NCBI RefSeq assembly: GCF_018977255.1 | Contig: NW_024704742.1 | Location: forward strand, 72,046,001-72,110,000 | Length of the DNA stretch: 64,000 nt | DNA from: Callorhinchus milii | Taxonomy: Eukaryota | Direction: 5' to 3' | Shown here: piece after piece, positions 14,890 to 61,378 of the stretch | Layout of the letters: each line of letters opens with the position of its first letter | Numbering within the stretch: the first letter of the stretch is position 1 | Notes under the pieces: model-generated | The model's database searches: none | Seen by the model: only the letters and a program-made list of their open reading frames with translations | What the model was told of the DNA's origin: nothing | Program-made: the position numbers and the translations under genes

Positions 14890-14921
<32 letters not shown>

Positions 14922-26384: not shown

Positions 26385-27228
26385 AGCATTGTTGGCAGCA
26401 TCACGTGGATGGTGATGCTGTCAGCACCTGAGTCTCTACACCTGACAGCATCACCAACCAATGATGCAGACTAAGCCAGGTGGAACCTTGACGTCTCGTT
26501 TGACCTTCAACTATCCTTTCTACCCCCCCATCCGTGCCATGACCTGCTCTGCCTTTTCCCACCTCCGCAACATCGCCCGGCTCCGCCACTGTCTCACATC
26601 GCAGGCCGCTGAGACCCTTATACACACTTCCATTACATTGAGGCTTGACTATGCAAACTCCTTGCTTGTCGGCCTCCCCAGCTCGTCTCTTCATAGGCTG
26701 CAGGTCATCCAGAACTCTGCAACCCGTGTCCTCTTCCGCACCAAACTCCGTGACCCTATCACCCCCATCCTCGCCCGACTCCACTGGCTTCCCATCACAC
26801 AGAGGATACAATTCAAGATCCCGGTCCTGACCTTCAAAGCTCTCCACGGTCTTGCTCCCCCCAACCTCTCCGACCTCCTCACCCCCTACCGTCCTGCTCG
26901 CTCCCTCTACTCAGCGGGCTCCGGCCTGCTTCATGTCCCCCGCCTTGCTTGCCCCACTATAGGCGGGCGGGTCTTCTGCAACTCTGCCCCACCCTCTGGA
27001 ACTCCATCCTGCAGTCCCTCCATCTCGACCTCTCTCTCCCCATCTTCAAGACCCACCTCAAGACCCTCCTTTTCGACTGTGCTTTTGATCTCCCTGCTTT
27101 CCTCCCAGCCCTCACCCCTCCCCCACCCCGACCCTCAGCTTGGATCCGAAACACTGTCTGTCCAGCGCCTTGGGACGTCCTCCCGACGTGAAAGGCGCTA
27201 TACAAATGTAATTTTGTTGTTGTTGTTC
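26385..27228 (+). mobile_element. 5'-truncated L2
   Basis: HLRNIARLRH, LHWLPITQRIQFK, (TTG)n tail. Confidence 0.88.
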
Positions 27229-27344
27229 TATGACAAATGTAAAGATTATTAATATTATCACTGGCTGGACAGTGCGCTGCTTCCACCAAGTGGTGAGAAG
27301 GCAGAATTGCCGCAAAGGTACCAAACTATTCTTAAAGGGAAGTG

Positions 27345-27555
27345 GCTGGGAACACTCAGCAGGTTAGGCAGCATCTATGGAGAAAGGAAAGTGAATCAAC
27401 GTTTCGGGTCCATGACGTGTCAGCGACCCATGGACCCGAAACATTGACTCACTTTCCTTTCTCCATAAATGCTGTCTGACCTGCTGAGTGTTCCCAGCAG
27501 CTTCTGTTTTTGTTTTCAGATTTCCAGCATCTGCAGTGTTTTATGTTTTATTCTA
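27345..27555. mobile_element. Penelope-type palindromic terminal fragment
   Basis: ~70-bp inverted arms 27345-27414 and 27429-27498, then TTTTCAGATTTCCAGCATCTGCAG tail (also near 7905-7945). Confidence 0.7.
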
Positions 27556-30500
27556 AAATGGACTTTGCTTCAGGCTTTGGTCTTGGCAACTGGCAAGAAG
27601 ATGAGTGGCTTCACTGGGATAGAATTCCTGTCTCCCCAGGTCACAGGCCATCTGTGTGGAGCGTATCTCTTTGCCTCCCCCTTGTCCAGGCCTAAGTGCA
27701 GGAAACACTTTGAAGCGCTTTGAAATGTCCTCGCAAAATGAACAGCACTGTATGAAATGCACGGTAATTATTATTAATAATATTAATAAACAGCCATTGG
27801 ATGGCCATCTTCCCTGTCAGACAGTCAGACTGTCCTGACTGCTCTCAATTACCAGCCTAGGGCTGGAGTTATTATTAGTAAAGAGTATGTTTGCAGAGTG
27901 GAGAGAAGGGAATTAAGAATTAATCCTGAAAAATAGACATTCTAAGAGCAAACAAAGTTAGATATTGTCCCACCTGAGAATGTAGACTATCTGTCGCTGT
28001 GTAGACTATATTTCTCTCCGTGGACCTTATCTGGAGTGGAGTCCTGTAGCTTAGTGTTAGCACGCTCACCTTGCAAGCAAGAGAACCTGGGTTCAATTCC
28101 TGGGCAGGGCAAAACCTTAGGCAAATTTCCTTACTCCACACGCCTCCATTTACCGAGCAGTAAGTAGGAACCCGGTTATTAGTTGATTGGTGGAACGCTT
28201 TCTGATAATCCCATCAAAAAAATAATAATTTGGTCACTCAATCCACTACTGTTTGTGGGACATTGCTGTGCGCAATTGCCACGTTTCACCCACAAGATAT
28301 ACAGTCCTTTACAGTATATTTTGTGAAGTGCTTTGAGACATCTCAATGCCGTGATAAGGAGCTCTATCAGATGCAAGGATTGTTATTATTATCATTATTT
28401 TCTCTGTGTAGAATGTATGTCCCTGTGTAAACGGGAGGTGAAGTGCTCTGAGACACAACCTGCATGAAGGGCATAACATAAATGCAAGTTATTGTTGACT
28501 GTATCTCTTTTTCTGCTCTTTTTCCCCACAAACCCCTCCCCCGAGCTCCTCTGTACAGTCTTGGACTCATTTTCAGAATCAGAAGCGAGAACTCTGCATG
28601 AGGAACCTTGAGGTTAAGGCTGGGGCCGAGCCTGTATCTGGGGAGAACGGGGAGAGTTGAGCAGGAAGAATAAGATCAGAGTCAGACCCAGCCTAAACCT
28701 CAAGATCTCCTCACAGAGAAGTCTCAGTTCCACTTCTGAGAATCAGAGGCAAAGACTGTGGCTGGAAAGAACCAGGCAATCTTGGATCTAAGGTTCCCAA
28801 AGCTTCCAACCTTCTGTAGACTAATCCATACAGAATTCCCCCCATCCACCCACAACCTCTCCCGCCACGACCTCTCCCTCCCCCTGCACTGCCACCAACC
28901 ACTGCACTGACTCCGGCTTTCATCTGATCGGTTCAGAAGTAGAGGACCCATCAGCTCTGATCTGTGACATTCCAGTGTAGTATTGGGAGAGTGCTGCATT
29001 GTCAGAGGTGCCGAGCTCCCATCTGCCTGTTCAGGTGGATGTTAATGTTCCTGCAGCGCTTATGGAAAAGAGAAGGGAGTTTCTTTCTCCCAGGGTCATG
29101 GCTGACAATCCCCCAAATAAAATTTGTCACCTGCACCATGGCTGTTTGTGGGACACTGGTATCTGCAACTGGCTGCCGTATTCACACGCAAAATACACAG
29201 TCACTGCACTTTACAATATATTCTGTGAAGTACTTTGGGACGTCTCAATGACATGATAAGGCGCTATATCAACAACAAGAGCAACAACAACTTACATTTA
29301 TATTGCGCCATTTCACATGGGGTAGCATCCTGGAGCGCTTGACAGTGGAGGGGTCTGACAACAAGCCAGGGGGTGAGGGAAGAGGGAGGAAACCGTAAGC
29401 ACGATCAAAAAGGAAGGTCTTTAGGTGCGATTTCAAGGTGGGGAGGGAGGGAGCAAGGCAGAGAGATTGAGGGAGAGAGTTCCAGAGTTTCTGGCGTAGT
29501 GGCTGATGGCATGGCTACCGATGGTGGAGGACTGGTGTGATGGGGATATGGAGTTTTGTGCGGATGAGTGTCTGGGCAGCAAATCAGATGCAAGGATTAT
29601 TATTATCATTCTGGAGCCCCCCCCTTATCCCCATCTACTTTTCTGTCTTCAACATTGGGCTGTTTTTGCTTTAGATTTCTCTGTAGTTCCCTCCCAAAAT
29701 AGTGAGAAACTCTCTCCACCGGGTGAGATGTGGTGGTCAGTCAGTGATCAGAGTCCAGCCATTTCTCACCATCAGCAAAATAACAGAGTTAGATTTCATA
29801 CACTCACAAACACTCTCACTAATACTCACACACACTGACACTCACTCACTGACATAGTCACTCACACATCTCACATCAACTCACACACATTCCCTGACAC
29901 ACCTACACTGATATTCACTCACACAAACACACTCACACCTATACGCACACTGATATACACACTGTCACTCACTCACACATTCACATACACTCACGTACAC
30001 CCTGTCTCACACACTGTCTCACACACACACTTGCACACTGTCACACACAAACACAAAGGATTATGAGGATGTGAAAGCCCAAACAAAGCTGCTGGTAGAA
30101 ATAGATGCTGGGCTATATTTCAGAGAAAATTGGAGAAAAAATAGAAAAGCAGAAATGCGGCAGTGTGTGGGTGGGGAGGGAGGGGAACCCTTGCACTGTG
30201 GGGGGAGAAGTGCGCTCTGTGTGTGAGAGGTTGGGGGGGGGGCGCCAATGTGGCAGCCAAGTGCATACAGCAGTGTCCCACAAACAGTGGTTGAGTGACC
30301 ATTTTGTTTATGGGATTATCAGCAACTAACATGGGCATTTAATGGGCTTCATTCTGCCTCTAATCCATCTGTCACTGACCTGGGAGTGTGGATGTTGAGG
30401 AAGGGGATGTGTCCCAGGCTGTTCCCGTGATAGTACTGACTTCCCCTTCACAGCCAGATTCAGTTTCTCTCAGTGTAGAAAAGAGGAAATGGCCCCGAAT

Positions 30501-30659: not shown

Positions 30660-30750
30660 ATGGACAGCCCCCCAAACCTGTCTCCCCCTACAATGCCGGG
30701 ACCCGGAGACCAGCACAGCCTGGACAGAGAGAAATCCCATCTCCTCACAG
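30660..30750 (+). CDS. SHTN1-like: Shootin-like coding exon 1 (MDSPPNLS...DREKSHLLT)
   Basis: ATG 30660, donor G|gtactg at 30751, phase 1 matches the next exon. Weak homology; the true start could be ATG 30693 or an upstream exon. Confidence 0.55.
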
Positions 30751-33700
30751 GTACTGTGTCTGTTTTTTGTCCGTCTGTGTCTGACACACACGGAAACCCA
30801 TCACCGTGCTTAAGAGTCTCCAAACCAAACTGAGAGTTATGTGGAGAGACTAGACAGGATGAAATTTTTCTCCTTAGAGCAAAGAAGGATGAGGGGAGAT
30901 TTGATAGAGTAGAAAAGGAGAAACTGTTTCTTCTGGTGGGTACGTTGGTAACCAGAAGATACAGTTTCCTTACTCTGCACTTCTAATAATAATCCCTCAA
31001 AAAAAGCAATAATAAATTGGTCATTTTCAATCCACGACTGTTTGTGGGACACTGCTGTGTGCAATTGGCTGCCGTATTTCACCCACAAATATACGGTCAA
31101 TTCACTTTAAAGCATATTCTGTGAAGCTCTTTGAAACGTCTAGAAGACGTGAAAAGCGCTATATCAATACACTTGAAAAGGATAAATTTGTAGGGCTATG
31201 GGTTAGGAGCGGGAGAGTGGGACTAATAATAATCCTTGCATTTCGCCTTATCACGTCTCCAAGTGGTCTTCTTCTGCGCTTTAAGATTCTATGATTCTAT
31301 CCCACCTACACATGGAAATCCCAGAGATAGATGCTGGAATGAAATGTGCACTCTCTCCCTGGAGGGATGCATCCTGCTTACATAATTCCTGAAAGTATTA
31401 GGCACAGACTGGCAAGGGCCAAGGCTTGGGGACCCGAGAATGGGCATTGTGGAGTCCTGTAGCCCCTACCTACCTGCCTGTACTCTCCGTTCCTCTGGCT
31501 CCGGTCTGCTCCACATCCCCCGCCCCAACCGCCCTACCATCGGTGGCCGGGCCTTCAGCCTCTCAGCCCTGAGGCTCTGGAACTCCATCCCCCAGTGCCT
31601 TCGCCGCCTCCTCCCTTTCCTCCTTCAAGGCCGGTCTCAAGACCTTTCTCTTTGACCGTGCCTTCAGCTCCCCTCTCGACTCTCTACCCCCTCCTCGCTC
31701 CCTCCCTTCCCTCCCCTCACCCTGACCACTTCCCCCCTGTTCGGTCCTGACCCAACTGTACAGCGCCTTGGGACGTCCTCCCGACGTGGAATCTTGTTGT
31801 TGTTGCTGTTGTTGGTTAGAGCACTCACCTTGCAAACGAGAGGACCTGGGTTTGATTCTTGGCAGGGCAAAATGTTGGGCAAGTTTCCTTACTCCACACG
31901 CCTCTGTTTACCTAGCAGTAAATAGGAACCCAGTTGTTAGTCAATTGGTGGATCGTTTTTCCGTGGGTAATAATTCCTTCAAGATAAATAAAAATAATTT
32001 GATCCCTCAATCCACGACTGTTTGTGGAACACTGATGTGCACATTGGCTGCCACGTTTCGCACACAAAAGATAATCATTTCACTTTACAGAATATTCTGT
32101 AAATGGAGTCCTGTAGCTCAGTGGTTAGAGCACTCGCTTTGCAAGCGAGAGACCTGAGTTCACTTCCAGGCATGTCAGGGCGAAACCTTGGGCAAGTTTC
32201 CTTACTCCACACACAGCCTAATAATAATCCCTCCAAAACCAAAAACAATAATAAATTGGTCATTTTCAATCTACGACTGTTTGTGGGACATTGCTGTGCG
32301 CAATTGGCTGCCGCGTTCGCCCACAAATATACAGTCAATTCACTTTACAGTGTGTTCTGTGAAGCGCTTTGGGACGTCCTCCCGACGTGAAAAGCGCTAT
32401 ATCAAATGCAAGGATTATTATTATTATTATTATTCTGTGAAACGTTTTGAGAGGTCTTGAAGACATGATATGGCGGCATATCAAATGCAGGGATTATTAT
32501 TATATAACTACTGGAGTCTAACCAACTGAAACCGCAAAGGTTGCCATTGAGAACACTGTCTCGTAAGCTTTCCCACTGCTTGTCCGTTAGGGCTTTGGCT
32601 TCCAGGGTTAACAGGAGTTGAGTCTAATTCACTGTATTATCTGTTTCCCTGCAGTGATTACAGAGAGCAGCGATGACTCAGCGGATCCCGATGAAAATGG
32701 GAAGGTACTGACACACCCCGAGGGAGAGGGCTTCTCACGAGGGACTTTTTTTTATTGTCAGGTGTTTGACAGAAACAGGAACCCATCACTGTGATCAGCC
32801 TTGTGTCTGACACACACAAAAACCCATTACCCTGGGGGCGGGGGAGGCCTTGGGAGGAGGGGTAAGGACTGGGAAGGTGGAGGGGAGGGATGGAATGGCT
32901 CGGGAATGGGAGGTGGGTTGATGTTCAATACACATTTACACGTGTATAGCACCTTCGATGTCGGGAGATCACCACAAGGTACTGGAATCCTGGCTGGTGC
33001 TGATGGAGGTGTGGCTTGATGTTACAGGATGAGAGGGAGAAGGACGAGGTACAGAAACAGCTGGAGGACATGGAAAAAGGTGAGAGGTCACTTTGTGATC
33101 GCCAGCTATAACTACTCCTTCACTGCCCACTTGTTTGCTGGGTTTAACAGGTAGTGGGGTTTGCCTACAAACACACAGCAACTGCACTTAACATTGGTTC
33201 AGCATCATAATATTCTGTACATTAAGAATATTAAATAATAATATTAATCCTTGCATTTGATGTAACGTCTTATCACTTGATTATTGAGGTGACTCAAAGC
33301 GCGTCACAGAATATATTGTAAAGTGAATTGACTGTACATTTTGTGGGCTAAATGCAGCAGCCAATTGTGCACAGCAGTGTTCCACAAATAGTCATGGATT
33401 GAGTGACCAATTTTTATTTTGAGGGATTATTACTCCCAGAAAGCAATCTGCTAATCGACTAACAGTCAGGTTCCTACTTACTGCTAGCTAAACAGAGGAA
33501 AGCGTGCTAACCACAACCCTACGGAACTTGATAAAGTACCTTTCACGTCGGGAGGACATCTGAAAGAGCTTCACATGATTTTACTATGACTGTGACTGTG
33601 TCTTTTGTGGGCAAAGACAGTAACATGCCACGAACAGCTATAAAGTGAATGGCTAACTTTATCTAGGGGATTGTTGACCAGGACCGGGAGAGAGAAACTC

Positions 33701-36700
33701 CTTTCTCTTTTCAAACAGCGCCATGGGGTTTTAAACATCCACTTGAGCATGCATAGACAGAACCTTGTTTAACGTCTCATTCAAAGGATGGCACCTCTAA
33801 CAACAATAACAACAACAAAATTACATTTATAGAGCGCCTTTCACATCAGGAAGATGTTCCAAGGCACTGGACAGTCAGGGGTCAGGACCCAAGCATGGGG
33901 GAGGGGTGGGGTAAGGGAGAGGGAAGGCAGAGAAGTAGGAGGGAGACCGAAGGCACGATCGAAGAGGATGCTCTTGAGACCGGCCTTGAAGGAGGCGAGG
34001 GAGGAAGTGAGGTGAAGGGACTGTGGGATGGAGTTCCAGAGTGTAGGGGCAGAGAGGCTGAAAGCTCGGCCACCGATGATAGGGTGGGTCGGGCAGGAGA
34101 CATGGAGCAGGCCAGAGCCTGCTGAACGGAGGGAGTGGGCAGATTGGTAGGGAGTCAGCAGGTCAGAGAGGTAGGAGGGGGCAAGGCCATGGATGGCCTT
34201 GAAAGTGAGGATGAGGATTTTGAATTCGATCCTCTGAGGGATGAGGAGCCGGTGGAGTCGGGCGAGGGTGGGAGTGATGGGGTCACGGAGCCTGGTCCGC
34301 AAGAGTACACGAGCTGCAGAGTTTTGGATGATATGCAGCTTGTGAAGGGAAGAGTTGGGAAGGCTGATGAGGAGGGAATTTCCATAATCGAGCCTTGATG
34401 TGACAAATGAATGGGTGAGGGTTTCGGCAGCCTGAGGGGTAAGGCAGTGATGGGCCAGAAGCTAGATAGCTGTGTTGGTCAAGGGAAGGTTTCTTCAAGG
34501 AGTGGGGTGACAGTGGTGGTTTTGAAGGGTGTAGGAACAGTGCCAAATGACAGGGAGAGGTTGATGATGTCGGAGAGTAGTGGAGCAAGGGGGTGGAGCT
34601 GGGATTTAAGCAGTGGGGTGGGGATAGGGTCCAGGGAGCAGGTGGTGGGTTTCATGGAGGATATAGAGGTGATGATAGAGGAGGGGGTTACAGGTTCAAA
34701 GGTGTGGAAGGAGGGATGGGTAATAGTCGGAGTGTGGGGTGGGGAGTAGGAAGGGGGTAGAAGTTGGGAGGGCAGTGGCAGCTGAGCGTATTCCCTCGAT
34801 TTTGGACTCAAGGAAGTCCAGCATTTCCTTGCAGTGGGAGTTGGAGGAAAGAATCTGCGAGGCGTGGTGGGGAGGGCGGAGGAGCTGGTTGGTGGTGGAG
34901 AACAGGAGCCTGGGGTTGCCCTTCGTCTCCAGGATTAACCTGATATAGAAGGACGATTTGGCTGAGGCGAGAGTGGAGCGATAGGTTTTGATGTGGTCCA
35001 GTCAGATGCACTGCACTGCAAGCACTGCACTAGAGCATCAGCCTGGACTGTGAGCTTAAGTTCCCCAATGTAAGGCTTGAAGCCATAACATCCTGACTGA
35101 GATTAGATTGTGAGTGATTGAACCGGGCTGATACCAGCTTATTCTGATAGGCATGATGGCTGGATGAACAATTTATTAGTAGTCAGCTGGGAGTCTGGTC
35201 TGGTCATCACTGGTCTGCACCTCCAAGTCCTGCCGATGAGCCAGGCTGTGCAGCATCCTGGAATACTGCAGACCCAACTGGCTCAGGAACCAGACTGGAG
35301 ATTGTCAGAGAGGGTGGGATAGATTCTGATATTCCATTGTTAGAAACCTCACCTTAGAGCTAGATCCTTTCTGATGTCCTGCCTATGACAATCCACTGGC
35401 TCCCTGTCACCAAATGGGTTGATTTCAAGATCCTCACACTCGTCTTCAAATCCCTTCATACTCTGACATCTCCCTACCTCTCTGACCTGCTTTCTCCCCA
35501 ATCCAGTACTTCCTGCAGCCTCCTGCTTGTCCTGCGTCTCATCCATTCCACCATCAGTGGACAGGCTCTCAGCTACTATGTCTTAACACTTTAGAACACT
35601 CTTCTTCTATCCCTCTGCCTTGCCCCTTCCTTCATCATCTTCCGGTAGCGCCTAAAGACCTTACTCTTTGGTCTTTAGCTTATGTAAGGTTTGGTGAGAG
35701 ATGAACAGATACCTGTATCTGGGTCTCTATCACAGCATCACTGCATTTAGCCGGCCTCCACGCAAATTGTAAAACAAGCCCAGCTTCCAAATCAAGATTG
35801 AATTTTGGCTCTTTGGCTTATGGTCACCTCCCACCGGTTCGGCATCAGGCTGCCAAGCGCTCTGGGATGCTACTCTGCTTGAGGTATGCTATATAAATGA
35901 AAGTTGTTGTGATTCTCGGTCAGTCTCCAGGCAGATTATCCAAGAGATGAGCGAGCTGGAGATGCAGTTGGAGATCGAGAAGACTTGTCGTGTGAACGCC
36001 GAGGTGTTTGCTGTGAAGGTCAGTCATCTCTCACTGAGGTCGGGATTCCCTCTAGGACATATCCAGCTGTGAGGGAGTTATAATAATAATTCTTGCATTT
36101 GATATGGCAACTTATTACATTATTACATCTTTGAGACATCTCAAAACGCTTCACAGAATATACTGTAAAATGAATGGACTGTATATTGTGTTGGCAAAAC
36201 TTGGCAGCCAATTGCTCACAGCAGTGTTCCACAAACAGTCATGGATTGAGTGACCCAATTACTATTATGATTATTATTATTTTTTGAAGGGATTATCATC
36301 CCCGGAAGCGATCCACCAATCAACTAAAAAACAGATTCCCACTTACTGCTAGATAAACAGAAGTGTGTGGAGTAAGGAAACTTGCCCAATGTTTTGCTCT
36401 GCCCGTAAATTGAACCCAGGTCTGCTCGCCTGCGAGGCAAGTGCTCTAACCAGTAAGCTACAGGACTTCATGAGTTGGTGCTCAGCCAGGCCTTGACACA
36501 ACATCAGGGGACCTGGGATCCCAGGTGGAGGAGAAGTAGATTTGGGTGTCCACATACAGTGTGGAAGTCATTTTCAAAGCCCTCCACAGCCTTACTTGTC
36601 CCTACCTCTGTGATCTGCTAACTCCATACCAACCTGTCCACTCCCTCTGCTCAGCAACCTCAGGCCTGTTCCACATCACGCCCTGCCTGCTCCACCATTA

Positions 36701-39700
36701 GCAGTTGAGCCTTCAGCCTCTCTGTCCCCACCCTCTGGAACTCCATCCCACAGTCCCTTCGCCTCGCTCGCTCCCTTGCCTCCATCAAGGCACACCTCAT
36801 TAGCTCCTGTCAGCGTCTCCACACCTCAGACTCTGACAGCATCACCATCCAAGGATGCACAACAACAACAACAAGATTACATTTGTATAGCGCCTTTCAC
36901 GTCAGGAGGAAGGCACACTCCACTTCACTGAGCCAGTTTGTAACCTTGATGTCTTGTTTGACCCTCAACTATCCTTTCTACCCCACATCCATGCCATGAC
37001 CCGCTCTGCCTTCCCCCACCTCTGCAATAGTGCTCGGCTCCACCTCTGCCTCACCCCTCAGCCTGCCAAAACCCTTGTACGTACATCTAGGCTTGACTAT
37101 GCCAACTCCCGGCCTTCCCAACTCTTCCCTCCACAAGCTGAGGTTCATTCAGAACTCTGCAGCTCATGTCCTCTCCCACACCAGGCTCCATGACTCTATC
37201 ATGCCCACCCTCGCCCGGCTCCACTGGCTCCCCATCCACCAGAGGAAAGCATTAAAATCTCTCGTCTTCATCTTCAAAGCCCTCCACGGCTGTGTTCCTT
37301 CCTTCCTCTGTGATCTGCTAACGCCAAATCAACCTGTCTGTTCCCACCGCTCAGCAGGCTTTCTCCACATCCCCCGCCCGGTCCACCCCAGCATCAGCTG
37401 TCGGGCCTTCAGCCTCTCTGCCCCCACCCTTTGGAACTCCATCCCACAATCCCTTTGCCTTGCTCCCTCCCTTGCTTCCTTCAAGGCCCATTTCAAGATC
37501 CTCCTCTTTGACCATACCTTCGGTCACCCTCCTACCCCTACCCTCCCTGCCCTCTACCCCTCCTGATCCCAAACCCCTGCTCAGGTCCAAATCTCTGTCT
37601 GTCCAGCTCCTTGGGACGTAAAGGGTGCTATACACATGTAATTTGTTGTTGTTTTTATTGTGTTATAGCCATTACACACGGTGTGTTATTATATAATATA
37701 CAATGTTATAGCCAGTAACACACAGCGACAATGAGGATTAATCTGTCACCATTTCCCAGGTGAACAAGGAGAATAAGAAGCTGGTACGGCTGAGTCGAGC
37801 GTTACAGCCTATGTGGGACTCTCTCCCAGATGACATTACCAAGCTCGGGGCTGAGGACAAGGAGACCCCCAACCCCACCTGCAACCCAGAGTACCAATAC
37901 CAGCTCCAGGTCAAAGGTGAGAGCAGCCCCATGCTGGTGATCTCTGTGTGAGTTACGGTTGTGTGCAGGAGGGTGGGTGGGTGGATGTGTGCACGCACGA
38001 GCGAGCGAGTGAGTGTGGCAGAAGACAGACCCTTCAGACTACCGGACAAGGATGGGCTAAGGTCCCAGATTTCTCCTAGTCTTAGCTCGTGGAGCATTTT
38101 GTTTGCAGGTTTACAGGGGAAGTTGCAGAAACTTCCACAATTCAGTTCTTAGCATAGTGGTTAGAGCACTCACCTTGCAAGCGAGAGGACAGGTGTGCGA
38201 TTCCCGGGCAGGGTGAAACATTAGGCAAATTTCCTTACTCCACACGCCACTGTTTACCTAACAGTAAGTAGGAACCTGCTTGTTAATCGATGGGTGGGCT
38301 GCTTTCTGGGGGTAATACTCCCTCCAAAAAATAAATAAACAAAATAATAATAATAATTTATTCACTCAATCCAAGACTGTTTGTGGGACACTGCTGTGCT
38401 GAAATTGATGCCACATTTCGCCCACAAAATACACGTTCACTACAGTTTACTGTATATTCTGTGAAATGTTTTGAGACGTCTCAACGATGTTATAAGGCGC
38501 TATATCAAATGCAAGGATTATTATACTATTGTACGTTTAATTTTTAAGAACTGTGGAAAAATAGCTCCCAAATTTAGCCTTGAATTAGGAATTCCCACAA
38601 TCCTGGGTCATAGCAAATGTTATGGCAAATAGGTCCCGTAGCTGAGACTAGGCGGAATTTCCGACCTGCTGTTCATCATATTCAATGTGCTAGTGACACC
38701 TGCTGGTGGAATGTCAGTGGTCCGTGCATCTTTCATTGTATTGTTTATTTGCTATGAACAGAGAGACAGAGACAGAGGACCCTTACGTTGTGTTTACTGA
38801 GATCTAAACACAACGAGAATAATGCTTAGACAAGAGTGAGTTACAAGGTGGAATCTAATCCTGGGTTCCAGGGGGATTATATATAGAATAACACATCCCA
38901 GGAGTGAGGTACAGGCTAGAATCTAAGGGAGTGGGGTTTATATATAGAATAACACATCTCGAGAGTGAGGTATATTGATGGTGCCACTACAATGTAAACC
39001 TGCCCCGGATTGTCAGTATATACCAACCCTCAACAACAACTTGCATTTATATAGCAGCCTTCACACGGGGCAGCGTCTCGGAGCGCTTGTCCCCCAAGAC
39101 AGGTCCTGTTGCTGCTTAGACTAATGGAGATATCTCTCTCTGGTCAGACCTTCAGGAGAGGATTACACTGCTGCTGGAGGAGAGGAGGGAGCTGAGCAGC
39201 TCGCTGGAGACCCTGCAAGCTCGATTCACCCAACTGACAGAAGAGGTGAGTCACCCCCAGGCTGTTTCGTCCAGCGGAGTCCTGTCACAGTGGTCACTGA
39301 AACCAACTGACTCCTTCCCCTCACTCCCACTGTATACACTCCCAATGGCCCAAACCCCTTCCTGTCCTCTAATATAATCCAGTTGCGCTGGGGATTTATC
39401 AGCCAGGACACCGTGAGAAACTCCCTTTTATTTTTGAAATACTATTGTGATACCAATAAAAACAATTTATACTTGCATTGTGCCGTTTACTTAGGGCAAT
39501 GTCTCAGAGCACTTCACAGCGGCGGGGTGGATGCTGAGTGTGGGGGAGGGCATCATCGGCACAGCCGAAAAGGTGCGTCCTAAGACAACTTGAAAAGGGG
39601 CGAGGTGGAGTGTGAGGCAATAAGGGGGAGGCCTAATTGTGAGATCAGGAAATGGGCAGCAAACCCAGGTTAGCTGAGCAGAGCAGGTAAGTGGAGAGGA

Positions 39701-42700
39701 GTGGGTAGGACATCAGAGAGGTGTGAGGGTGTGCAATGATTTATAGGTAAAGGCAAACAGTCGAGAGCTTGGCTTTATCACCTCTTTCCAAAGGATGTCA
39801 CCTCTGATAGTTCAGCGCTCCACTACCATAGCCCTGGAGAGGTAGCCTGGACTGTGAGCTCCAAGTCCTCAATGTGGGGCTTGAACCCACAAGGTTCTGA
39901 CCCAAAGAGGAGAGTGCAAGCGGCTGATCCAGGTAATGTCTGCAGTTTAGCAGAGAGGTGGGTGTGATTTGAGAGGTAAACACTGGGGGTAAACGTTGGG
40001 GGTAAACACTGGGGGTAAATATTGAGGCTAAATACCGAGAGTAACCCACTTGCCTTGTGATGCTGGTTGTAGGTGGCGAGAGAGCGGACAGAGAAGATTG
40101 CGCTGCAGAAAGTGCAGGAGAGGCAGAGCAAGGCTCTCAAACGCATCAATACAGGTGAGTACTGGTTTCCTGAGGGGCAAGGAGAGGGGTCTAGCCTGGC
40201 CTCTCTTCTCTACGTATTTATTTGATCAGCCAGGTGTCTGCCACATGTGGAAACCTATCTCCAGGCTTAAGAATATCCAAACCAATCTAAGAATTCCACG
40301 CATCCCACCTACACATGGAAATCCCAGAGATAGATTGTTGGAATGGAATGTGCGCTCTCTCCCTGGATTCCAGAGAGTTTAAGGCGCAGGTTGGCAAGAG
40401 CCTAGGCGTGGGGAGCCCAGTGTGTGCGTTGGGGTAACTGTTGCAGTCTAACCAGCTAAAACTGTATTGTTTGCCATTGAGATCACTGTCTGGTCAGCTT
40501 TCCCACTGCTTGTCCAGATCGGACCACCCTACCTGTTAAGGCTTTGGCTTGCAGGGTTAACAGGAACTGATAGCAAATCCAGGTTAGCTGAGCAGCCAAT
40601 ACTGCAGGTTTCTGAGCTACCAAGTTGTTTTTTGCATACTTGGTTGCGAACTTCAACGTTGCCTCCAGATCTGAGCTGGTTCCTGAGCCCCGCGCCACGA
40701 CACTGGATCCCCTTGCATTTCCGTCCATCTATGCACAGACAGCAACGGCCCAGTCAGTTGCGCACAAGGTGCTCATCAGACTCTTTGGCAGTTGACATGC
40801 ACAAAAAACCTTCCCAGAATCCTGCTGGCTCAGAAGCATCATGGACATTTGAGGCAATTTCTCACAGATCTGGTTCAACATCTTCATCAGGATCGAGAGG
40901 GAATCAATGGGAAAATCAACAAGAGTCCCTGTCCCCAGTGACTGTCTTGCCGATGAGCCAGGCTGGCTGTGCTGTCATCAGCAGTGCCCTGTAATACTGA
41001 GGACCCGCCTGGGTCAGGCACTGGACACAGATACTGTCGCAGAAGGCTGGCCAGATTCCAACATTCTGTTGCCAAACATGTCACCTTGGAGCCAGTCTCT
41101 TAGGAGCTCTCCAAAGAGACCCTGCTAAACTCCACCCCCACGCACGTTATTAGGTTACTAGCTGTACCCATTGCGGCTTTGCTTGCAACCAAATGATCCA
41201 ATGCGGAATGTAGATTGACACACAAACAGACAGACAGACATTTCATCTTTATCTATATTCTTCGAGGAGGACTGCTGTCAGAGGATTCCTGTGGGAGAAC
41301 TCAGTGGGGGGACTCGTCGCTTTAAAAATGTGATTTTGTTGTTGGCATAGCTTCGTCTGTATTCTTTATTTTGCTCCCGCCGCTTGGCTACGTACATGCT
41401 CTGTGACGCAGGAAGCCACAGCGCCATATTGTCGTTTTATTAGTATAGATAAATAAAGATGGCAGATCTTTGAATCCCACACCCCTGCCATTTCCCCCAT
41501 ACCCAGTGAGTTGGTAACTAAAGCACATCAATTTAAGATCATCACCAATCCTGACTGGAGAGTTTTGAACTGGAGCGGTCTAGACGGGGGTGGGGGGAAG
41601 AGTAATGGTCCTGGTGTGGCTGATGCTGACAGTCATTCTCCACCCTTTCTGGCTGTAGTGTCGGTGCTGGTCACTCAGGATTACCAGGAGCTGCAGCAGC
41701 AGCTCGACCTAGAACAGGAGCTCAGGCAGCAGGCAGAAACCTACGCCCACCAGGTATATCCCCTCTGCTCTGCCCCGGCCCATAGAGCCCTGCCCCAAAG
41801 CCCAGCCCCATCCCCACTCCCCCACCCCCACAGCCCATCCCCACCCACACTACCCCAACCCCACAGCTCAGCCCCACCCCCACTCCCCCACCCCACAGCC
41901 CACCCCCACTCCCCCAACCCCACAGCACAGCCCACACAGTCCCACTCCAACCAGCCCAACTCCACGTTGCACTGCCTCGCCCACACAGCTGCCACCCCCC
42001 CACCCACCCAAACTGCTGAACTGTTCCGCCCTGTGTCTGTCTGTAGGTCTGTCTATCTGACTGGTGTGACCAACAGTTTGTCTGTGTGACTGACTGTGTG
42101 GCTGACTGTCTATGTATGCGTTTGACTGTGTGTGACTTTGTGTCTGTCTGTCTGTCTGTCTGCGTGACAGCCTAACTGTCTGCCTGGCTGTCTGGCTGTG
42201 TGACTGCCTGACTTTCTTCCTGACTGTCTGGGTGACCGCCTGACTGATTCGCTGGGTGTGTGTGTGAGTGCCTGACTGACTGTCTGTCTGTCTGTCTGTC
42301 TGTCTGTGTGACTGCTTGACTGTCTGCATGACTGGCTATCTGTGTGATTGTGTGCCTGTCTGTCTGCACGATGTGAATGTGTGACTCTCTGTCTGTGTGT
42401 GTGCCTGTATGACTGTGTGCCTCACTGTCTGCGGATGTGACTGAATGTGTGACTGTGCTTGTCCTGTGCTGGTATGACTATGCCTAACTGTGTGCTGGTG
42501 TGCCTGATTGTGTACCTGTGTGACTGTGTGCCTGACGGTGTGACTGACTGTGTGCTGGTGCGGGAGCCCAGATGCTGGTAAGGCAGCGGGAGGCGAGCCG
42601 GCAGAGTGTAATTCTGTTACAGAATGTACTGCCAAGCGAGCAACTGCTCACAGCCCTGGAGGAGGTGGCCTCCCTCAACCGCTGCCTGGAGCAGGAGAGA

Positions 42701-45700
42701 CACCAGCACCAGCAGCTGGTAAGACACTACCCAACCCCCCTAACCCCAAGAGCTTGGGGCGAGGCAGAGCGGACTTGGGGCAGAGACAGGCAGGGGCAGA
42801 GGGCAGGCAGGGGCAGAGGGGAGGCAGGGGCAGAGGGCAGGCAGGGGCAGAGGGCAGGCAGGGGCAGAGGGCAGGCAGGGGCAGAGGTGGAACATAGGCA
42901 GGATTTGAAGTTTGGGACGGCGACAGAGTTCGGATTGGGGTGGGGATGGAGGCAGAGGACACAGCCTGAGATTGAAGGGGGGTAAATTCAGAATGAATCT
43001 GTGCAAACAGTATTTCCGTGAGCGAGTAGTAAACCTGTGGAACAGGTTGGTGGGGTTGGGTAGGGGCCATGGTGGGGTTGAGGCGGGGATCATGATTGGG
43101 TTGGGGTTGGGGTGGGGGTCATGATGGGGTTGGGATAGGTGTCATGATGGGGTTGGGGCGGGGGTCATGATTGGGTTGGGGCAAGGGTCATGGTGAGGTT
43201 GGGGTGGGAGTCATGGTGGTGTTGGGGGAGTCATGGTGGGGTTGGGGTGGGAGTCATGGTGGTGTTGGGGGTGGGTCATGATGGTGTTGGGGTGGGGCTA
43301 ATGGTGGTGTTGGGGTGGGGGTCATGGTGGTGTTGGGGTGGGGCTCATGGTAGGGTTGGGGTGGGGCTCATGGTGGGGTTGGGGTGGGAGTCATGGTGGG
43401 AGTCATGGTGGTGTTGGGGGGGGAGTCATGGTGGGGTTGGGGTGGGGCTCATGGTGGGGGTGGGGCTCATGGTGGGGTTGGGGTATGGCTCATGGCGGTG
43501 TTGGGGTGGGGCTCATGGTGGGGTTGGGGTGGGGCTCATGGCGGTGTTGGGGCGGGGGTCATGGTGGGGTTGGGGTATGGCTCATGGCGGTGTTGGGGCG
43601 GGGGTCATGGTGGGGTTGGGGCAGGACCATGGTGGGGCAGGAGGATAATGATATCCTCATTATGCAGGTACAGGAGCTGAAGCACAGGCTGGAGGGGAGC
43701 CAGGCGGAGAGCGAGGTGGCCAGGCTGACATTGGCCCTGAGTATAGCTGACGAGCAGAAGGAGGATGTGGAGAGCAGGCTGGCTGTCGCAGAGACCAAGA
43801 GCCTTGAGCTGGAGACAGAAGGTCAGTGTCTTGTCACCGGGGGGGCAGTTGGTCTCCTCGGAGCTGAACTGGCTCCAAGGTGACATGGCAATGGAATGTC
43901 GGAATTGAGCTCTAGTCCGGTCACAGAGGCAGGTAAGCAGGTCCGCAGTATTCCAGGGTGCTGCTGATGACAGCTCAGCACAGCCTGGATCATCGGCAGT
44001 CACTGGGGCAGGGAATCCTCCCACTTAGCTCCTGTTAACCCTACAAGCCATGCCTTAACAGGTGGGATGGTCGTAGCTGGACAAGCAGCGGGAAAGCTCC
44101 TGAAAGCAAGAATTGAGAAAAATCCTTCAATCACAGTGGTAATCTGGAAGCCAGTTTTCCACTTTTCTTGAAAAGAAACTGGCTGTTAAGCGCTCCGAGA
44201 AGCAACCCTGTGTGAACTGCATAAGGTGTTGTGGTTTAAATAAACACCCGATTTAACAATTCTTCAAAAATCTGTGCCCTACAACCCTCCCTGGTCGCAG
44301 TCCAGGTTGATGCTCCAGCATGGTGCTGAGCGGTGGTTTCCGTTGTCGGAGGTGCCATCCTTTGGATGAGATATTAAACCGAGATCCTGTCTGTGCTTGT
44401 TCAGGTGGGCGTTAAAGATCTCGCTATAGGCAAAGAGAAAGGAATTTCTCTCCCTCGATGTCTTGGCCAACAATCCCCCAGATAAAATTGGTCATTATGG
44501 AGTCCCGTAGTGTAGTGGTTAGCATGCTCACCTCACAAGCAAGAGGACCCGGGTTTGATTCCCTGGCAGGGCGAAACCTTAGGCAAGTTTCCCTACTCCA
44601 CATACCTCTGTTTACCTAGGAACCCGGTTGTTAGTCGATTTGCGGATCGCTTTCAGGCGATAATAATTCCTAAAAAAAAAATTGGTCATTCAATCACGAC
44701 TGATTGTGGGACACTGCCATATTTCACCCACAAAATTCACAGTCACTACACTTTACAGTATATTTTGTGAAGCGCTTTGAGATGTCTCAACAATGTGATA
44801 AGGATCTATATCAAATGCAAGGATTATTAATTATTATTATTAATAATCACTCTGATCGAATCTCTTTAGTTCAGACACTTCGGATGAAGCTGGAGGCTGC
44901 TGACAACACAACCCATGAGGAGCAACAGGAAGGGGCTCCCCCACCCCCTCCCCCCCCTCCACCCCCTCCCCCACCCCCGCCTGCACACCCACCAGCATCC
45001 AGAGTGCCGATCGAGTAAGTGAAACTTCAGCACTCAGCAACGGATGTGTTTAACCCCTGAGTGAACAACACCCAATTTGATTGAACCTGCTCAAACTCAA
45101 GCAACCACATCAGGGACTCTGAGCTCTCAATCCAGGCTGATGCTCCAGGCAGGTGCTGGAGGGAGATAGCGGCAAATTTTCAGAGACGCCACCCTTCAGA
45201 TGAGATATTAAACTTAGGTCCCATCTCTGCGTGTTCAGGTGGATGTTAAACATCCTGCGCGATATTGGAATAGAGAAGGGAGTTCCTCTCTCCCGGTATC
45301 CTGGCCAACAATTCCCCAGGTTAATTGTTCATTCACGACAAAGCTGTTTGTGGGACATCGGTCTGCAATTTGCCTGCCAAGTTCTCCTATAGACACACAG
45401 TCACTACACTTTACAGTAAATCCTGTGAAGTGCTTTGGTGTCAGAGACGCAAGACTATAACCTTCCTGAAGATTCGGTGTTTTTCGTGTGTTAGAGCAGG
45501 GAGTTTCTCCAGGATTCTGGGCCAATATTCCCATTGTCCAGACACAGCCCAGGAACAGAGGTGATAGTGTGTTAATGTGAGTGTGATCCAATCCATCGCA
45601 ACATTGATCCTGCCTCCCCCCCACCCCCCCCCCCCCCCCACACACACACGCAACCAATTTCAGCCTGTGGAGCCAGTATCTATATGATTTTGTGTAAATC

Positions 45701-48700
45701 CTTGACTGTCCAACATCCAACACCTTGGGACGTCCTCCAAACGTGAAAGGTGCTTTACAAATGTAATTTGATGTTGTTATTGTATGTGGTGGGAGCGGGG
45801 TCGGAGCGCAGCCACTCTCAGAGTCCCCAAATTCCACTTGATCCCAGCCGTGAGACCACCTTGTCTTAAACGTTAGGTTTACGGCAGAATGCAATCATTC
45901 ACTCTGGCACTGAATCAGTTCGGAAACCAACTGCGTTTCTAACAGTGGAAAAAACAGGCTTTCCAACCAGAAAACAAGGATTCGGAAATTTTCCAAAGTG
46001 GAGCCTTAAATAGGGGTGCTACACTCACACACACAGGCTCCACAGCCTGAGACTGGCTAGAATTTCTGACCACGACCCAGAGGCTGTGTGTGTGTGAATG
46101 TGTGGATGGGAAGAGGGATGTGTGAGAATTAGTGTTGCGATGGATTGGATCACACTCATACTCACACTCAATGTCTGGCTCACACTCACTGTGTGTTTGA
46201 AGCTCCAGAAGAGTGGGAAAACCTGGCTCAGAACACAGGCTTGGAGGATGTGTTAGTATGAGGCTCTTATCAGGGTTTGTGCTCGGACTCCAGGCCCCTG
46301 GCAGAGCTGTTACGCCGAAGGAAGCAGGAACGCAAGGAAGCTGGGCCAGAGAACAGTGAGTAACACACTCACCCTGCTCACAGCCACACTGCTCACGCCC
46401 ACACTGCTCACACTCACACTGTCACTGCTCACACTCACGATGGTCAATACTCATACTCAGGGGAAATGGGATAAGAGTAGAGAGCTCCAATGGGGGAGCG
46501 AGCACCAGCACAGACACGTTGGGGAGAGATCAGGCAATGGGATTATAGTAATAATAGAGCTCCAGTGGGGCATCTAGATTCAGCACCAACACAATGGAGG
46601 GAGCAGGGAATGGGATTAGAGTAGAGAGCTCCATTGAGGGAGTGAGCACCAGTACAGCCACAATGGGGAGAAAGCAGGGAATGGGATTAGAGGTAGGTGA
46701 GGAGGGGCTGATCAACTCACAGGAAAAAATAAAAGTTTGCCGGCCAGATTGAGGTCTCGGCGGTGCCTGTGATGGAGTTGAGTGAGAGCATTGTCTCTGT
46801 CCACAGAGACCACCACCCTGGACAGCCTAAAGACAATGGCCGTGGATGAAATGATGGAGCGAATCAAAAACGGGGTCTCGCTGAAACCCACCAAATGCCA
46901 CACAGAGGTAACCAGCCACAGTAGTACGTGGGACCCTCCTCATATTCCCCCCCACCCGGCCAATTGGGTTCTGCTGGTTTCAGCCTGGGTCAGTCCCTCC
47001 CACTCCAGCCTCTGCTTCAGGAGTTGTGAAGACCTTTCAGGAGGTTGCTGAAGACCTTTGTTTTCGACCACGCCTTTGGTCACCTTCCTCCCCCTCCCCC
47101 TGGCTCGGCCCCAGGATCTGTTACTGTGAAGCGCTCCAAGACGCCGCCCGGCGTGGAGGGCGCTATATAAATCAAGTTATTGTTATTGTTATTGTTATTG
47201 TTGTTGTTATTGTGGTTTCCGGCAGATGCTCCAGTGCAGTGCTGTGGGGAGAGAGCACTGCATTGTCAGAGAGACCCAGTGCTTCGGATGAACCGTTAAA
47301 ACTCAGTCTGTGCCTATTCAGGTGGATGTTAAGGATCCCGCAACACTCTCTACTGGTGTCCTGGCCAACAATTTCCCAGATAAAATCGTGGATGTCTGTG
47401 GGATATTGATGTGCGCAAATTGACTGCCTCATGCACCTACTAAAGACACAGTCACTGCACTTTACAGTGAATCCTGTGAAGCGCTTTGAGACATGTTTTA
47501 AATTGCGTTTTTAGGCTATTTTTCTTTCTCTTTTATGTTTATCACTTTCCTTCTCATTCTTCCTTGCTTTAGTTATTTTCCTCTCTGTGTGGGTGTGTGA
47601 CACAGTGAACTCTGTGTATGTCTGTGTGTGTTTGTGACACAGTGACGTCTGTGTGTGTGTGTGTGTGTGACGCAATGACCGCTCTGTGCTCTGCTCTTGC
47701 CTGCAGCTCCCGAGCCCGAGAGCAGAGAGTCCAGTGACAGAGCTTAAAGGGATCTTGGTTAGTATCTGACATTGTTCTTGGTCTGGCGCTTCTCACACTG
47801 TTACTGTGGGTGCTTTGGGGCAAGATGTGGAGAGCAGGGAATGGGATTATGAGCAGAGAGCTCCATTGGGGGAGTGAGCACCAGCAGAGGCACGATGGGG
47901 AGAGAGCAGGGAATGGGGTATGTGTGAGGCCTGGTTGCGTGTGTGAAGCCTGGGCTGTAGGTAACAGTTGTGTCTCCGGTGACAGGAGGGGATGAGGACC
48001 AAGCGGAGGAGCTGGAAGAGTCGGCTGGGGAGTGGACACAAACACAATGAGTTGCAGAACATCCTGCTCCGCAGACGCAGAGTGATGGACGTTCCCTCGC
48101 AGCAACCCCCAGACGACCTTCCGGAAAACAATCCAGGTATCGGGAGTTAAATCAACGGGGCAAGCATGGAGCTGGACTGGCCCTAAGGTGACGTGCCTGG
48201 CAACAGAATGTCAGAATCAAGCCCATCCTCTATGATGGTCTCTAGTCGGGATCCTGAGCCAGGCGGGTCCGCAGTATTCCAGGGCACTGCTGATGGCAGC
48301 ACAGCCCAGCCTGGCTCATCACCAGGACCTGGAAGGGCAGACCAGTCACTGGGGGCAGGGAATCCTCCCACTCAGCTCCTGTTAACCCTGCAAACCAAAG
48401 CCCTAATGTGTAGGGTGGTCCCAGCTGGACAAGCAGCAGGAAAGCTTGCCAGTCTCCAGTAGTTACCCGAAAGCATACTCTGGGGTCCTCAATCCTTGGC
48501 TCTTGCCAACCTGAGCCTCAAACTATTCAGCATTAGGTAAGAAGGATGTTTCCCTCCAGGGAAAGAGCGAGTGCGCATTCCAATCTGGATATGGGGAGAT
48601 TTCCATGCTTAGGAAGCATGCGTGCATCTCTCAGTCTAGTTTTGATACTATTACAACAACAACAACAACAAGATTCCATTTATAGAGCGCCTTTCACGTC

Positions 48701-49175
48701 AGGAGGACGTCCCAAGGCGCTGCACAGTTGGGTCATGACCCGAGCAGGGGGGAAATGGTCAGGGTGAGGGGAGGGAAGGGAGGGAGAGAGGAGGGGGAAA
48801 TGGTCAGGGTGAGGGGAGGGAAGGGAGGGAGCGAGTAGGATGAAGAGAGTCGAGAGGGGAGCTGAAGGCACGGTCAAAGAGAACTGTTACTGTACTGTAC
48901 TGTACTGTTACTGTTAAGTACAATGATGGGTCTCCTTGCGTGTCAGACACCAGCTGACCATGGTGATGGGTTTCTGTGTAGTGTTTGCTGTGACGCTATG
49001 TTCTGTGCTCTCGTCTTTCCCAGCCTCGCGGTGCGACCCTAGTCCTGTAGGCAGCACACCCTTGGGGGGAGCGGAGGTCAAAACGAACCCCTGGAAGATG
49101 CTTCAACGAACAGGGGCCATCTTGCAGAGCAAGAGGATAGAGCAGTGTTTCGAGGGCAGCACTGACACAGCCTGA
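30660..49175 (+). CDS. SHTN1-like: Shootin-family protein (SHTN1 paralog), 16 coding exons, 1683 nt, ~560 aa: coiled coils, polyproline tract, C-terminal WH2-like region
   Basis: Manual join 30660-30750, 32655-32704, 33028-33079, 35924-36018, 37760-37916, 39148-39245, 40073-40154, 41659-41753, 42572-42718, 43668-43821, 44870-45014, 46294-46355, 46807-46907, 47707-47757, 47986-48136, 49024-49175. All introns GT-AG, phase-compatible, no stops. Shootin-1-like motifs: [33 protein letters not shown], poly-Pro, [35 protein letters not shown]. Confidence 0.9.
31461..31813 (+). mobile_element. L2 subfamily B 3' fragment inserted in a SINE head
   Basis: Splits GGAGTCCTGTAG|...|TGGTTAGAGCAC of the tRNA-like head. 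Confidence 0.8.
32105..32432 (+). mobile_element. tRNA(Ala)-derived SINE, short young variant
   Basis: Closely matches 5780-6090; inserted in the tail of another SINE with duplicated ATTCTGT. Confidence 0.88.
32655..32704 (+). CDS. SHTN1-like: Shootin-like exon 2 ([17 protein letters not shown])
   Basis: ttccctgcAG acceptor, aag|gtactg donor, phase 1 to 0. Confidence 0.65.
33028..33079 (+). CDS. SHTN1-like: Shootin-like exon 3 ([17 protein letters not shown])
   Basis: ttacAG / g|gtgaga; resembles shootin-1 ERDEAVKKLEEFQK. Confidence 0.8.
33800..35005 (-). mobile_element. L2 with internal deletion of the RT core
   Basis: 3' end joined at ~34450 directly to the pre-RT region ([12 protein letters not shown]). 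Confidence 0.82.
35924..36018 (+). CDS. SHTN1-like: Shootin-like exon 4 ([32 protein letters not shown])
   Basis: LEIEKTCR motif; cAG acceptor, gtcagt donor. Confidence 0.92.
36580..37660 (+). mobile_element. Tandem L2 3' fragments
   Basis: L2 C-terminal motifs and tail. Confidence 0.8.
37760..37916 (+). CDS. SHTN1-like: Shootin-like exon 5 ([12 protein letters not shown]...QYQLQVK)
   Basis: tttcccAG / gtgaga; NKENK motif. Confidence 0.92.
38815..38975. repeat. ~60-bp satellite-like repeat, ~2.5 units
   Basis: GAGTGAG(T/G)TACA...GAATCTAA...TATATATAGAATAACA; resembles a repeat recalled from shark genomes. Confidence 0.65.
39148..39245 (+). CDS. SHTN1-like: Shootin-like exon 6 ([33 protein letters not shown])
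   Basis: tcAG / gtgagt; coiled-coil, in phase. Confidence 0.9.
40073..40154 (+). CDS. SHTN1-like: Shootin-like exon 7 ([27 protein letters not shown])
   Basis: ttgtAG / gtgagt; in phase. Confidence 0.88.
40571..40924 (-). pseudogene. AARS2: Processed fragment of mitochondrial alanyl-tRNA synthetase C-terminus plus short 3' UTR
   Basis: Minus strand [100 protein letters not shown] resembles the recalled human AARS2 end (GKVLCACQV...[40 protein letters not shown]); premature TAG at 40729-40731. Confidence 0.85.
41158..41449 (-). mobile_element. Non-autonomous Helitron-like element
   Basis: Minus strand A|TCTATACTAATAAA ... GGGTACAGCTAG|T: 5'-TC, 3'-CTAG, AT target, no TSD, internal (ACAG)n. 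Confidence 0.6.
41659..41753 (+). CDS. SHTN1-like: Shootin-like exon 8 ([32 protein letters not shown])
   Basis: Resembles shootin-1 VSMLAVEEYEEMQVNLELEKDLRKKAESFAQE. Confidence 0.92.
42572..42718 (+). CDS. SHTN1-like: Shootin-like exon 9 ([18 protein letters not shown]...HQHQQL)
   Basis: Resembles shootin-1 RQSHLLLQSSIPDQQLLKALDE; donor gtaaga. Confidence 0.92.
42778..42887. repeat. ~18-bp G-rich tandem repeat
   Basis: GGGGCAGAGGGCAGGCAG units. Confidence 0.85.
43060..43640. repeat. G-rich ~21-bp minisatellite
   Basis: CATGGTGGGGTTGGGGTGGGGCT variants. Confidence 0.9.
43668..43821 (+). CDS. SHTN1-like: Shootin-like exon 10 ([12 protein letters not shown]...LELETE)
   Basis: tgcAG / gtcagt; coiled-coil, in phase. 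Confidence 0.9.
44870..45014 (+). CDS. SHTN1-like: Shootin-like exon 11, polyproline tract
   Basis: ctttAG / gtaagt; [11 protein letters not shown] then long Pro run then RVPI. Confidence 0.9.
46294..46355 (+). CDS. SHTN1-like: Shootin-like exon 12 ([21 protein letters not shown])
   Basis: ctccAG / gtgagt; phase 2 to 1 bridges the neighbouring exons. Confidence 0.82.
46460..46695. repeat. ~70-bp tandem repeat resembling a CR1 3' UTR; also near 18815-18910 and 47825-47920
   Basis: GGGAATGGGATT...AGAGAGCTCCA...GAGCACCAG. Confidence 0.7.
46807..46907 (+). CDS. SHTN1-like: Shootin-like exon 13 ([34 protein letters not shown])
   Basis: Resembles shootin-1 LKRQAVEEMMDRIKKGVHLRP. Confidence 0.93.
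47707..47757 (+). CDS. SHTN1-like: Shootin-like exon 14 ([17 protein letters not shown])
   Basis: Resembles shootin-1 ESAVDELKGIL; donor gttagt. Confidence 0.88.
47986..48136 (+). CDS. SHTN1-like: Shootin-like exon 15 (EGMRTK...[15 protein letters not shown]...ENNP)
   Basis: Resembles shootin-1b ELERILRRRKV; donor gtatcg. Confidence 0.88.
48652..48882 (-). mobile_element. L2 subfamily B 3' end with internal tandem duplication
   Basis: Matches 8012-8240. Confidence 0.82.
49024..49175 (+). CDS. SHTN1-like: Shootin-like terminal exon 16 (ASRCDPSP...GSTDTA*)
   Basis: Strong pyrimidine tract ctctcgtctttcccAG, phase 1, TGA at 49173-49175; no recognisable homology. Confidence 0.7.

Positions 49176-61347: not shown

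Positions 61348-61378
<31 letters not shown>

Follow-up and report, generated by a model that had tools for sequence, protein, structure and literature searches.

The 64,000-nucleotide stretch of the Callorhinchus milii (elephant shark) genome analysed here (contig NW_024704742.1 of assembly GCF_018977255.1, positions 72,046,001 to 72,110,000 of the forward strand; hereafter the window) carries at 30660-49175 on its plus strand a real, intact and spliced shootin gene, which its relationships in our trees identify as orthologous to shootin2 (shtn2). Jawed vertebrates have three shootins, of which SHTN1 is known as a nerve-growth gene. We consider it very likely that the explanation holds as a whole, namely that this shootin2 orthologue arose in an early genome duplication and encodes a protein with an SHTN1-like function. 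The gene is mostly ordinary apart from the absence of ATP6V1B1 beside it.

According to splice sites read off the sequence, the gene consists of 16 exons, with all 15 introns of the GT-AG type and a single open frame of 560 amino acids (aa) that ends in a TGA stop codon at 49173-49175, and the first AATAAA 3' of the stop is found at 49765. For exon 4 the acceptor at 35931 was rejected because it breaks the frame, and 35924 is the right one. Contigs from four runs presumed to be RNA (two studies) were aligned to 30300-49900, the run depth being dominated by repeats. Seven listed contigs mapped to the spliced model, all six multi-piece ones holding a constant offset, and jointly cover model nucleotides -138 to 1072 and 1167 to 1748; exons 2, 3, 7, 8, 12 and 14 were inferred from exact contig spacing and not as pieces of their own. 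Skips with GT..AG ends between exons 14 and 15 and between exons 15 and 16 each occurred in three of the four runs. The clean 16-exon gene of about 560 aa proposed in a preliminary description, made from the sequence alone, is thus borne out, and the spliced contigs agree with the model except at the exon 11-12 join, since this join and the second half of exon 11 (model nucleotides 1073-1166) are met by no contig among the pieces listed. This is a gap in those pieces and no evidence against the proline-rich segment encoded there. Translation may start at the ATG at 30660 or at an upstream in-frame ATG at 30489, which stands in a stronger context than the annotated ATG and is followed by an open frame (30489-30659); the longest contig among those listed begins at 30521, so that the upstream ATG is outside its cover. 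In addition, contigs of three runs extend intron 8 (42320-42571) into exon 9, and one of them continues into intron 9, which may reflect a retained intron, unspliced RNA or DNA. A G>A difference at 30667 in the contig of one run corresponds to the one at residue 3 by which the two RefSeq versions of the protein differ, and is probably an allele.

To place the protein among the shootins, a fast tree of 146 rows, 20 of them named, was built from a profile search (best 150 of 735 representatives), and a careful tree from 29 of about 210 shootin proteins picked for length and spread, from which the fused, partial and frame-shifted models P0050, P0170, P0173 and P0199 were excluded. The homology search with the window protein itself yielded at least 66 shootin matches. 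A first tree, which contained neither tetrapod shootin2 nor an outgroup, left the clade of the window protein unplaced. The fast tree resolved three jawed-vertebrate clades and invertebrate outgroups. In the 29-row tree the window protein groups with the basking shark, zebra shark and electric ray proteins (support 99/98), and this chondrichthyan group sits inside a 13-row clade (100/99; 96/99 without cyclostomes) whose branching agrees with species history and which also includes bichir, paddlefish, teleosts, caecilian, frog, lizard, duck and wallaby. Further named members of the wider shootin2 clade are teleost si:ch211-1o7.3, frogs, snake, sparrow and Tasmanian devil. The window protein is 43% identical to its zebra-shark orthologue. 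In the available text of Urasaki 2019 (PMC6704158), zebrafish shootin2 is a protein of 561 aa encoded on chromosome 7 that lacks the Ser249 site, shootin2 is found in fish and frog as well as the Tasmanian devil, and not in eutherians, and shootin3 is a protein of 655 aa encoded on chromosome 14 and found in fish and coelacanth. The clade of the window protein was named shootin2 because it holds frogs and the Tasmanian devil, because its teleost members (537-560 aa) match the zebrafish length, and because its cyprinid and loach rows likewise lack the Ser249 site. The gene is therefore not a new paralogue but the orthologue of an already named gene.

The possibility that the gene is SHTN1 or a recent SHTN1 duplicate, with the neighbouring homeobox exon belonging to VAX1, agrees with the RefSeq name 'shootin-1' and nevertheless has next to no likelihood. 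C. milii has a separate SHTN1 (P0043), to which the window protein is 32% identical globally, as well as a separate VAX1 (52% identical in the homeobox exon search) on another contig, and forcing the window protein into the SHTN1 group costs 96 log units (approximately unbiased (AU) test, p 4e-70). The earlier impression of a protein clearly diverged from shootin-1 is thereby confirmed. An identity as shootin3, or as a fourth shootin retained by cartilaginous fishes alone, is somewhat less remote though still very improbable: the best-scoring matches after those of sharks and rays are shootin3-type proteins and the end branch of the window row is long (0.63), but a forced grouping with shootin3 costs 53 log units (p-AU 2e-6), a skate protein already occupies the shootin3 clade, and the chondrichthyan proteins have bony-vertebrate shootin2 as their sister group (100/99), with both located on the VAX2 chromosome. 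Since the SHTN1, shootin2 and shootin3 clades each contain cartilaginous and bony fishes, these trees place the shootin duplications before the split of sharks and bony fishes. The shootin3 clade has, besides its skate member, an unnamed sister row (P0010, P0087); given the skate member, shootin3 too is dated by the tree to before that split.

Some observations on the family are noted here in their own right. The basking and white shark shootin2 models (P0004, P0005) contain a tandem duplicate of about 54 aa across the first coiled coil, which suggests an exon duplication in the lamniform sharks. The Tasmanian devil shootin2 model P0170 (Sarcophilus harrisii XP_031805066.1) bears the name 'collagen alpha-1(XVII) chain', and its middle part looks frame-shifted. 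Shootin-like proteins are widespread outside vertebrates, with 44 outgroup rows in the fast tree, two of which (sea urchin and acorn worm) are named.

A query with exon 9 returned one protein at 100% identity, C. milii XP_007906774, called 'shootin-1' (in an older version 'shootin-1-like'). It represents the same gene and is identical to our model outside aa 363-389, where a piece of intron 11 (45500-45579) takes the place of the proline run; its name implies SHTN1, and by the phylogenetic placement this label is wrong and the gene is shootin2. The UniProt model has the same exon 11-12-13 joins as ours, but shifts frame in the C-run and ends at 416 aa. Public models of the gene thus break at the proline-coding C-run (44936-45579). 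When scored against a profile of 19 relatives, from which the gene's own record was excluded, our model reached 523 bits and the RefSeq model 478, compared with 0.7 for the best of 50 shuffles, and in 12 of the 13 further shootin2 rows examined 9-18 of 20 aa at this place are Pro. The intron-11 piece of the RefSeq model is therefore probably a modelling artefact.

In our own simple scan the window protein has three heptad segments (46-112, 140-259 and 262-363), and heptad coverage amounts to 278 of 352 aa, whereas shuffled sequences gave a mean of 62 and a maximum of 155 (n=100). The coiled coils are followed by a stretch of 20 aa that begins at residue 364 and contains 17 Pro, a basic cluster, the WH2-like block and two further conserved blocks, in alignment with the SHTN1 rows and in the same order as the SHTN1 domains in the accessible part of PMC12768439. 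No Pfam family matches the whole protein or the WH2-like exon, and Pfam holds no shootin model. The block in exon 13 is called WH2-like from the alignment and from what we take to be its resemblance to that motif. In the alignment S108 and S252 stand opposite the invariant and near-invariant serines found in the SHTN1 rows and are presumably the equivalents of the rat PAK1 sites Ser101 and Ser249, the numbering being matched through the motifs. Since the Ser249-equivalent is kept in 12 of the 14 shootin2 rows examined, its loss in zebrafish is, judged by this alignment, a matter of lineage.

Cortactin and L1CAM are partners of SHTN1. By analogy, shootin2 would form coiled-coil oligomers that are carried along with the retrograde flow of actin at leading edges or growth cones and connect this flow to adhesion molecules as putative partners, yielding traction, and the clutch would be tuned by predicted PAK1 phosphorylation at the two serines. 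In line with this, zebrafish shootin2 forms speckles that, in published work, travel with actin retrograde flow, and shootin2 of C. milii probably works as an actin-flow clutch like SHTN1. Zebrafish shootin2 is expressed in the anterior embryo. A different outcome, in which the orthology is right and the function has diverged, so that there is no PAK1-tuned clutch or the main transcript lacks the proline-rich segment as in RefSeq, appears distinctly unlikely. Although the Ser249 site is absent from zebrafish shootin2, which in contrast to shootin1 and shootin3 was not seen in the zebrafish lateral line (Urasaki 2019, in the text available), and although shootin2 rows evolve faster, every motif block and both serines are kept in the window protein. 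Likewise, skipping of the segment would fit the lack of a listed contig over model nucleotides 1073-1166 and the one contig that starts exactly at exon 12, but the proline-rich model outscores that of RefSeq by 45 bits, 12 of 13 other shootin2 rows are proline-rich at this place (9-18 Pro in 20 aa), and the UniProt model shares the exon 11-12-13 joins, though its frame shifts in the C-run.

With respect to its origin, the window gene is in all probability a whole-genome-duplication paralogue of SHTN1, lying in a block that mirrors VAX1-SHTN1, as the preliminary description had proposed. In the parts of Mueller 2013 (PMC3827601) available to us, Shootin is listed among the genes of which the vertebrate duplications left copies on 10q26, 2p13, 8p22 and 5q31-33, vax and atp6v1B1 are 2.5-5.5 kb apart in human, mouse, Xenopus and gar (on Chr4 of the latter), and gar Chr5 carries vax-atp6v1Ba; that the shootin copies next to vax and atp6v1B stem from genome duplication is thus already in print. 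In paralogon 14 of Lamb 2021 (PMC8040251, likewise in part), gar LG4/human 2p13 is quad A and LG5/10q is quad D, and A,B split from C,D at the first duplication round (1R); SHTN, VAX and ATP6V1B have no row among the supplement rows listed. Both of our trees join shootin2 with shootin3 (85/73 and 81/69), as this A,B / C,D scheme predicts, but weakly. Synteny was judged from the length of the longest contig, used as a chromosome tag, and from one fused gene model: shootin2 and VAX2 share a chromosome in six of the eight species with both rows (white shark, zebra shark, loach, bichir, frog and snake), SHTN1 is on a chromosome other than that of VAX2 in caecilian and axolotl, and in a sturgeon gene model ATP6V1B exons are fused to shootin2, with ATP6V1B1 first and with residues that agree with the B1 rows in Mueller's alignment. 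VAX1 - atp6v1Ba - SHTN1 and VAX2 - ATP6V1B1 - shootin2 would both descend from one ancestral block, vax - atp6v1B - shootin, most likely by a split at the first-round duplication, and from the two vertebrate blocks we infer that the VAX-shootin linkage is older than the duplication. Placental mammals would then have lost shootin2 from the VAX2 block, and the elephant-shark sequence misses ATP6V1B1 instead. The claim of a loss in mammals does not hold as such: the clade includes proteins of wallaby and Tasmanian devil, the devil gene already being known from Urasaki 2019 (available text). No placental shootin2 was found among the 14 named clade members or the named homology matches (best 150 of 735 representatives), in line with the range given there; the gene appears to be missing from placental mammals and is kept in marsupials.

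Several points weigh against this interpretation or narrow it. On the round of the SHTN1/shootin2 split, the family tree gives shootin2+shootin3 a support of 85/73 and 81/69, and an alternative SHTN1+shootin2 grouping was rejected with cyclostomes (p 0.0014) but not without them (p 0.115). In raw identity the window protein is closer to the rows of shootin3 (39-43%) than to those of teleost shootin2 (32-37%), which, from the branch lengths, would be explained by faster change in teleosts. The name shootin2 was assigned through species range, length and the Ser249 mark and not by direct comparison with the zebrafish shootin2 sequence. The shared-chromosome test shows one chromosome and not adjacency, and two of the eight species do not match, namely a scaffold-level cyprinid and paddlefish, whose rows come from different assemblies. 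Finally, a clutch function in cartilaginous fishes would be a carry-over from other animals.

On the upstream side, a search with the exon at 3953-4417 gave 106 first rows named VAX2 or unnamed among the best 120 of 551 matches, with shark VAX2 60-62% identical, and the sole VAX1-named row among these 120 was C. milii's own (52%). C. milii VAX1 is located on a 28.3-Mb contig and the shootin record on a 139.2-Mb contig. Of the proposed location between VAX2 and ANKRD53, the VAX2 side is thus secured, the homeobox exon being VAX2 and not VAX1, and the ANKRD53 side is given by position, as a sequence-atlas search returned no name for the ankyrin gene at 57469-63456. Part of the last VAX2 exon recurs as an inverted copy at 1925-2032 on the minus strand, inside the upstream intron, as a tblastn match.

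Queries with 88 residues of sturgeon B1, with a complete bacterial B subunit and with five conserved motifs found no ATP6V1B exon from VAX2 to the window end, including 4418-30488 and 49176-57468 (best score 23 bits). The window is free of N, and an intact ATP6V1B1 at this locus is excluded. The gene may have moved elsewhere in the genome, or an old decayed remnant may be left, since the full-length bacterial subunit detects short vertebrate pieces weakly (20-39 bits). This loss is reciprocal to the human loss of shootin2 in the VAX2 block. In the open-access literature (subscription papers being mostly outside the search) no report of a missing C. milii ATP6V1B1 was found. Because the zebrafish optic stalk expresses vax1 together with shtn1 (bioRxiv 10.64898/2026.01.31.703039, as far as available), VAX - ATP6V1B - shootin might be viewed as an old regulatory unit, in which shootin shares the ventral-eye and optic-stalk enhancers of VAX and neighbours are lost reciprocally; we regard this as a speculative and rather unlikely idea. 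Shootin2 would then partner VAX2, and the losses would be those of shootin2 in placentals, ATP6V1B1 in the elephant shark and atp6v1Ba in tetrapods, a scenario that we hold equally doubtful. If it were true, the chimaera could serve to test, in a natural setting, for the sake of which neighbour the block exists, and would have no kidney-type proton-pump subunit B1 at all.

Table 1. Features of the window (positions counted from its first nucleotide) and the evidence or remarks for each.
Feature	Position	Strand	Evidence or remark
Last coding exon of VAX2 (homeodomain end to stop)	3953..4417	+	protein search
Interval where ATP6V1B1 lies in other vertebrates	4418..30488	.	26 kb, ~61% multi-copy within window
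Upstream in-frame ATG, possible longer start	30489..30491	+	57 codons 5' of ATG 30660
shootin2 exon 1	30660..30750	+	ATG; aa 1-30, conservation poor; presumed-RNA contigs
shootin2 exon 2	32655..32704	+	acidic stretch; splice model and contig spacing
shootin2 exon 3	33028..33079	+	coiled coil 1; splice model and contig spacing
shootin2 exon 4	35924..36018	+	coiled coil 1; splice model and contigs
shootin2 exon 5	37760..37916	+	S108 (putative PAK1 site Ser101 equivalent), linker; splice model and contigs
shootin2 exon 6	39148..39245	+	coiled coil 2; splice model and contigs
shootin2 exon 7	40073..40154	+	coiled coil 2; splice model and contig spacing
shootin2 exon 8	41659..41753	+	coiled coil 2; splice model and contig spacing
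shootin2 exon 9	42572..42718	+	S252 (putative PAK1 site Ser249 equivalent); splice model and contigs
shootin2 exon 10	43668..43821	+	coiled coil 3; splice model and contigs
shootin2 exon 11	44870..45014	+	proline-rich region, 17 Pro in 20 aa; second half absent from RefSeq model
shootin2 intron-11 piece	45500..45579	+	in RefSeq XP_007906774 in place of proline-rich segment
shootin2 exon 12	46294..46355	+	basic cluster at place of SHTN1 nuclear localisation signal; contig spacing
shootin2 exon 13	46807..46907	+	most conserved block, WH2-like; splice model and contigs
shootin2 exon 14	47707..47757	+	conserved ELKGIL block; splice model and contigs
shootin2 exon 15	47986..48136	+	conserved EL..IL.RRR block; splice model and contigs
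shootin2 exon 16, coding part to stop	49024..49175	+	splice model and contigs
Ankyrin-repeat gene, 5 exons, 498 aa, open	57469..63456	+	at ANKRD53 position; name by position

In the open-access literature (again with subscription papers mostly outside the search) no report of shootin2 in cartilaginous fishes was found, and the range in the available text of Urasaki 2019 does not list cartilaginous fishes, birds or squamates. New here are the occurrence of shootin2 in chimaera, sharks, rays, birds and squamates, the retention of both PAK1-site serines, the proline-rich segment missed by the RefSeq model and the absence of an ATP6V1B1 exon from the window. This wider range characterizes shootin2 as a jawed-vertebrate gene that was lost late by placentals, and, because it keeps the PAK1 site lost in zebrafish, the cartilaginous-fish protein would be a better stand-in for ancestral shootin2 than that of zebrafish. 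The missing ATP6V1B1 represents a third loss pattern in a block whose reciprocal losses of V-ATPase B subunits have been studied before. Together with the corrected RefSeq label and the repaired proline-rich segment of the gene model, the significance of these results is modest.

Compared with the shootin2 of zebrafish, Xenopus and Tasmanian devil (PMC6704158, available text), the C. milii protein falls into the same clade, has nearly the same length (560 versus 561 aa), shares the three coiled coils, the proline-rich region and the Ser101-equivalent, and has a teleost orthologue on the vax2 chromosome; in contrast to zebrafish shootin2, it keeps the Ser249-equivalent, and its locus, unlike the usual shootin2 block, lacks ATP6V1B1 upstream. 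SHTN1 in the VAX1 block (human 10q25-26) has the same part order and both PAK1-site serines, and likewise lies 3' of a VAX gene in the orientation seen for C. milii VAX2 and shootin2. Human VAX1 and SHTN1 presumably share one orientation. C. milii shootin2 differs from SHTN1 in its N-terminus and tail, in its separate clade and in its neighbour, which is ANKRD53-like and not ENO4. Shootin3 (si:dkey-280e21.3-type; zebrafish chromosome 14) shows the highest raw similarity outside cartilaginous fishes and is the probable sister of shootin2 from the two genome-duplication rounds (2R; 85/73), but forms a separate clade (100/99), has a longer tail and includes no tetrapod among its named rows.

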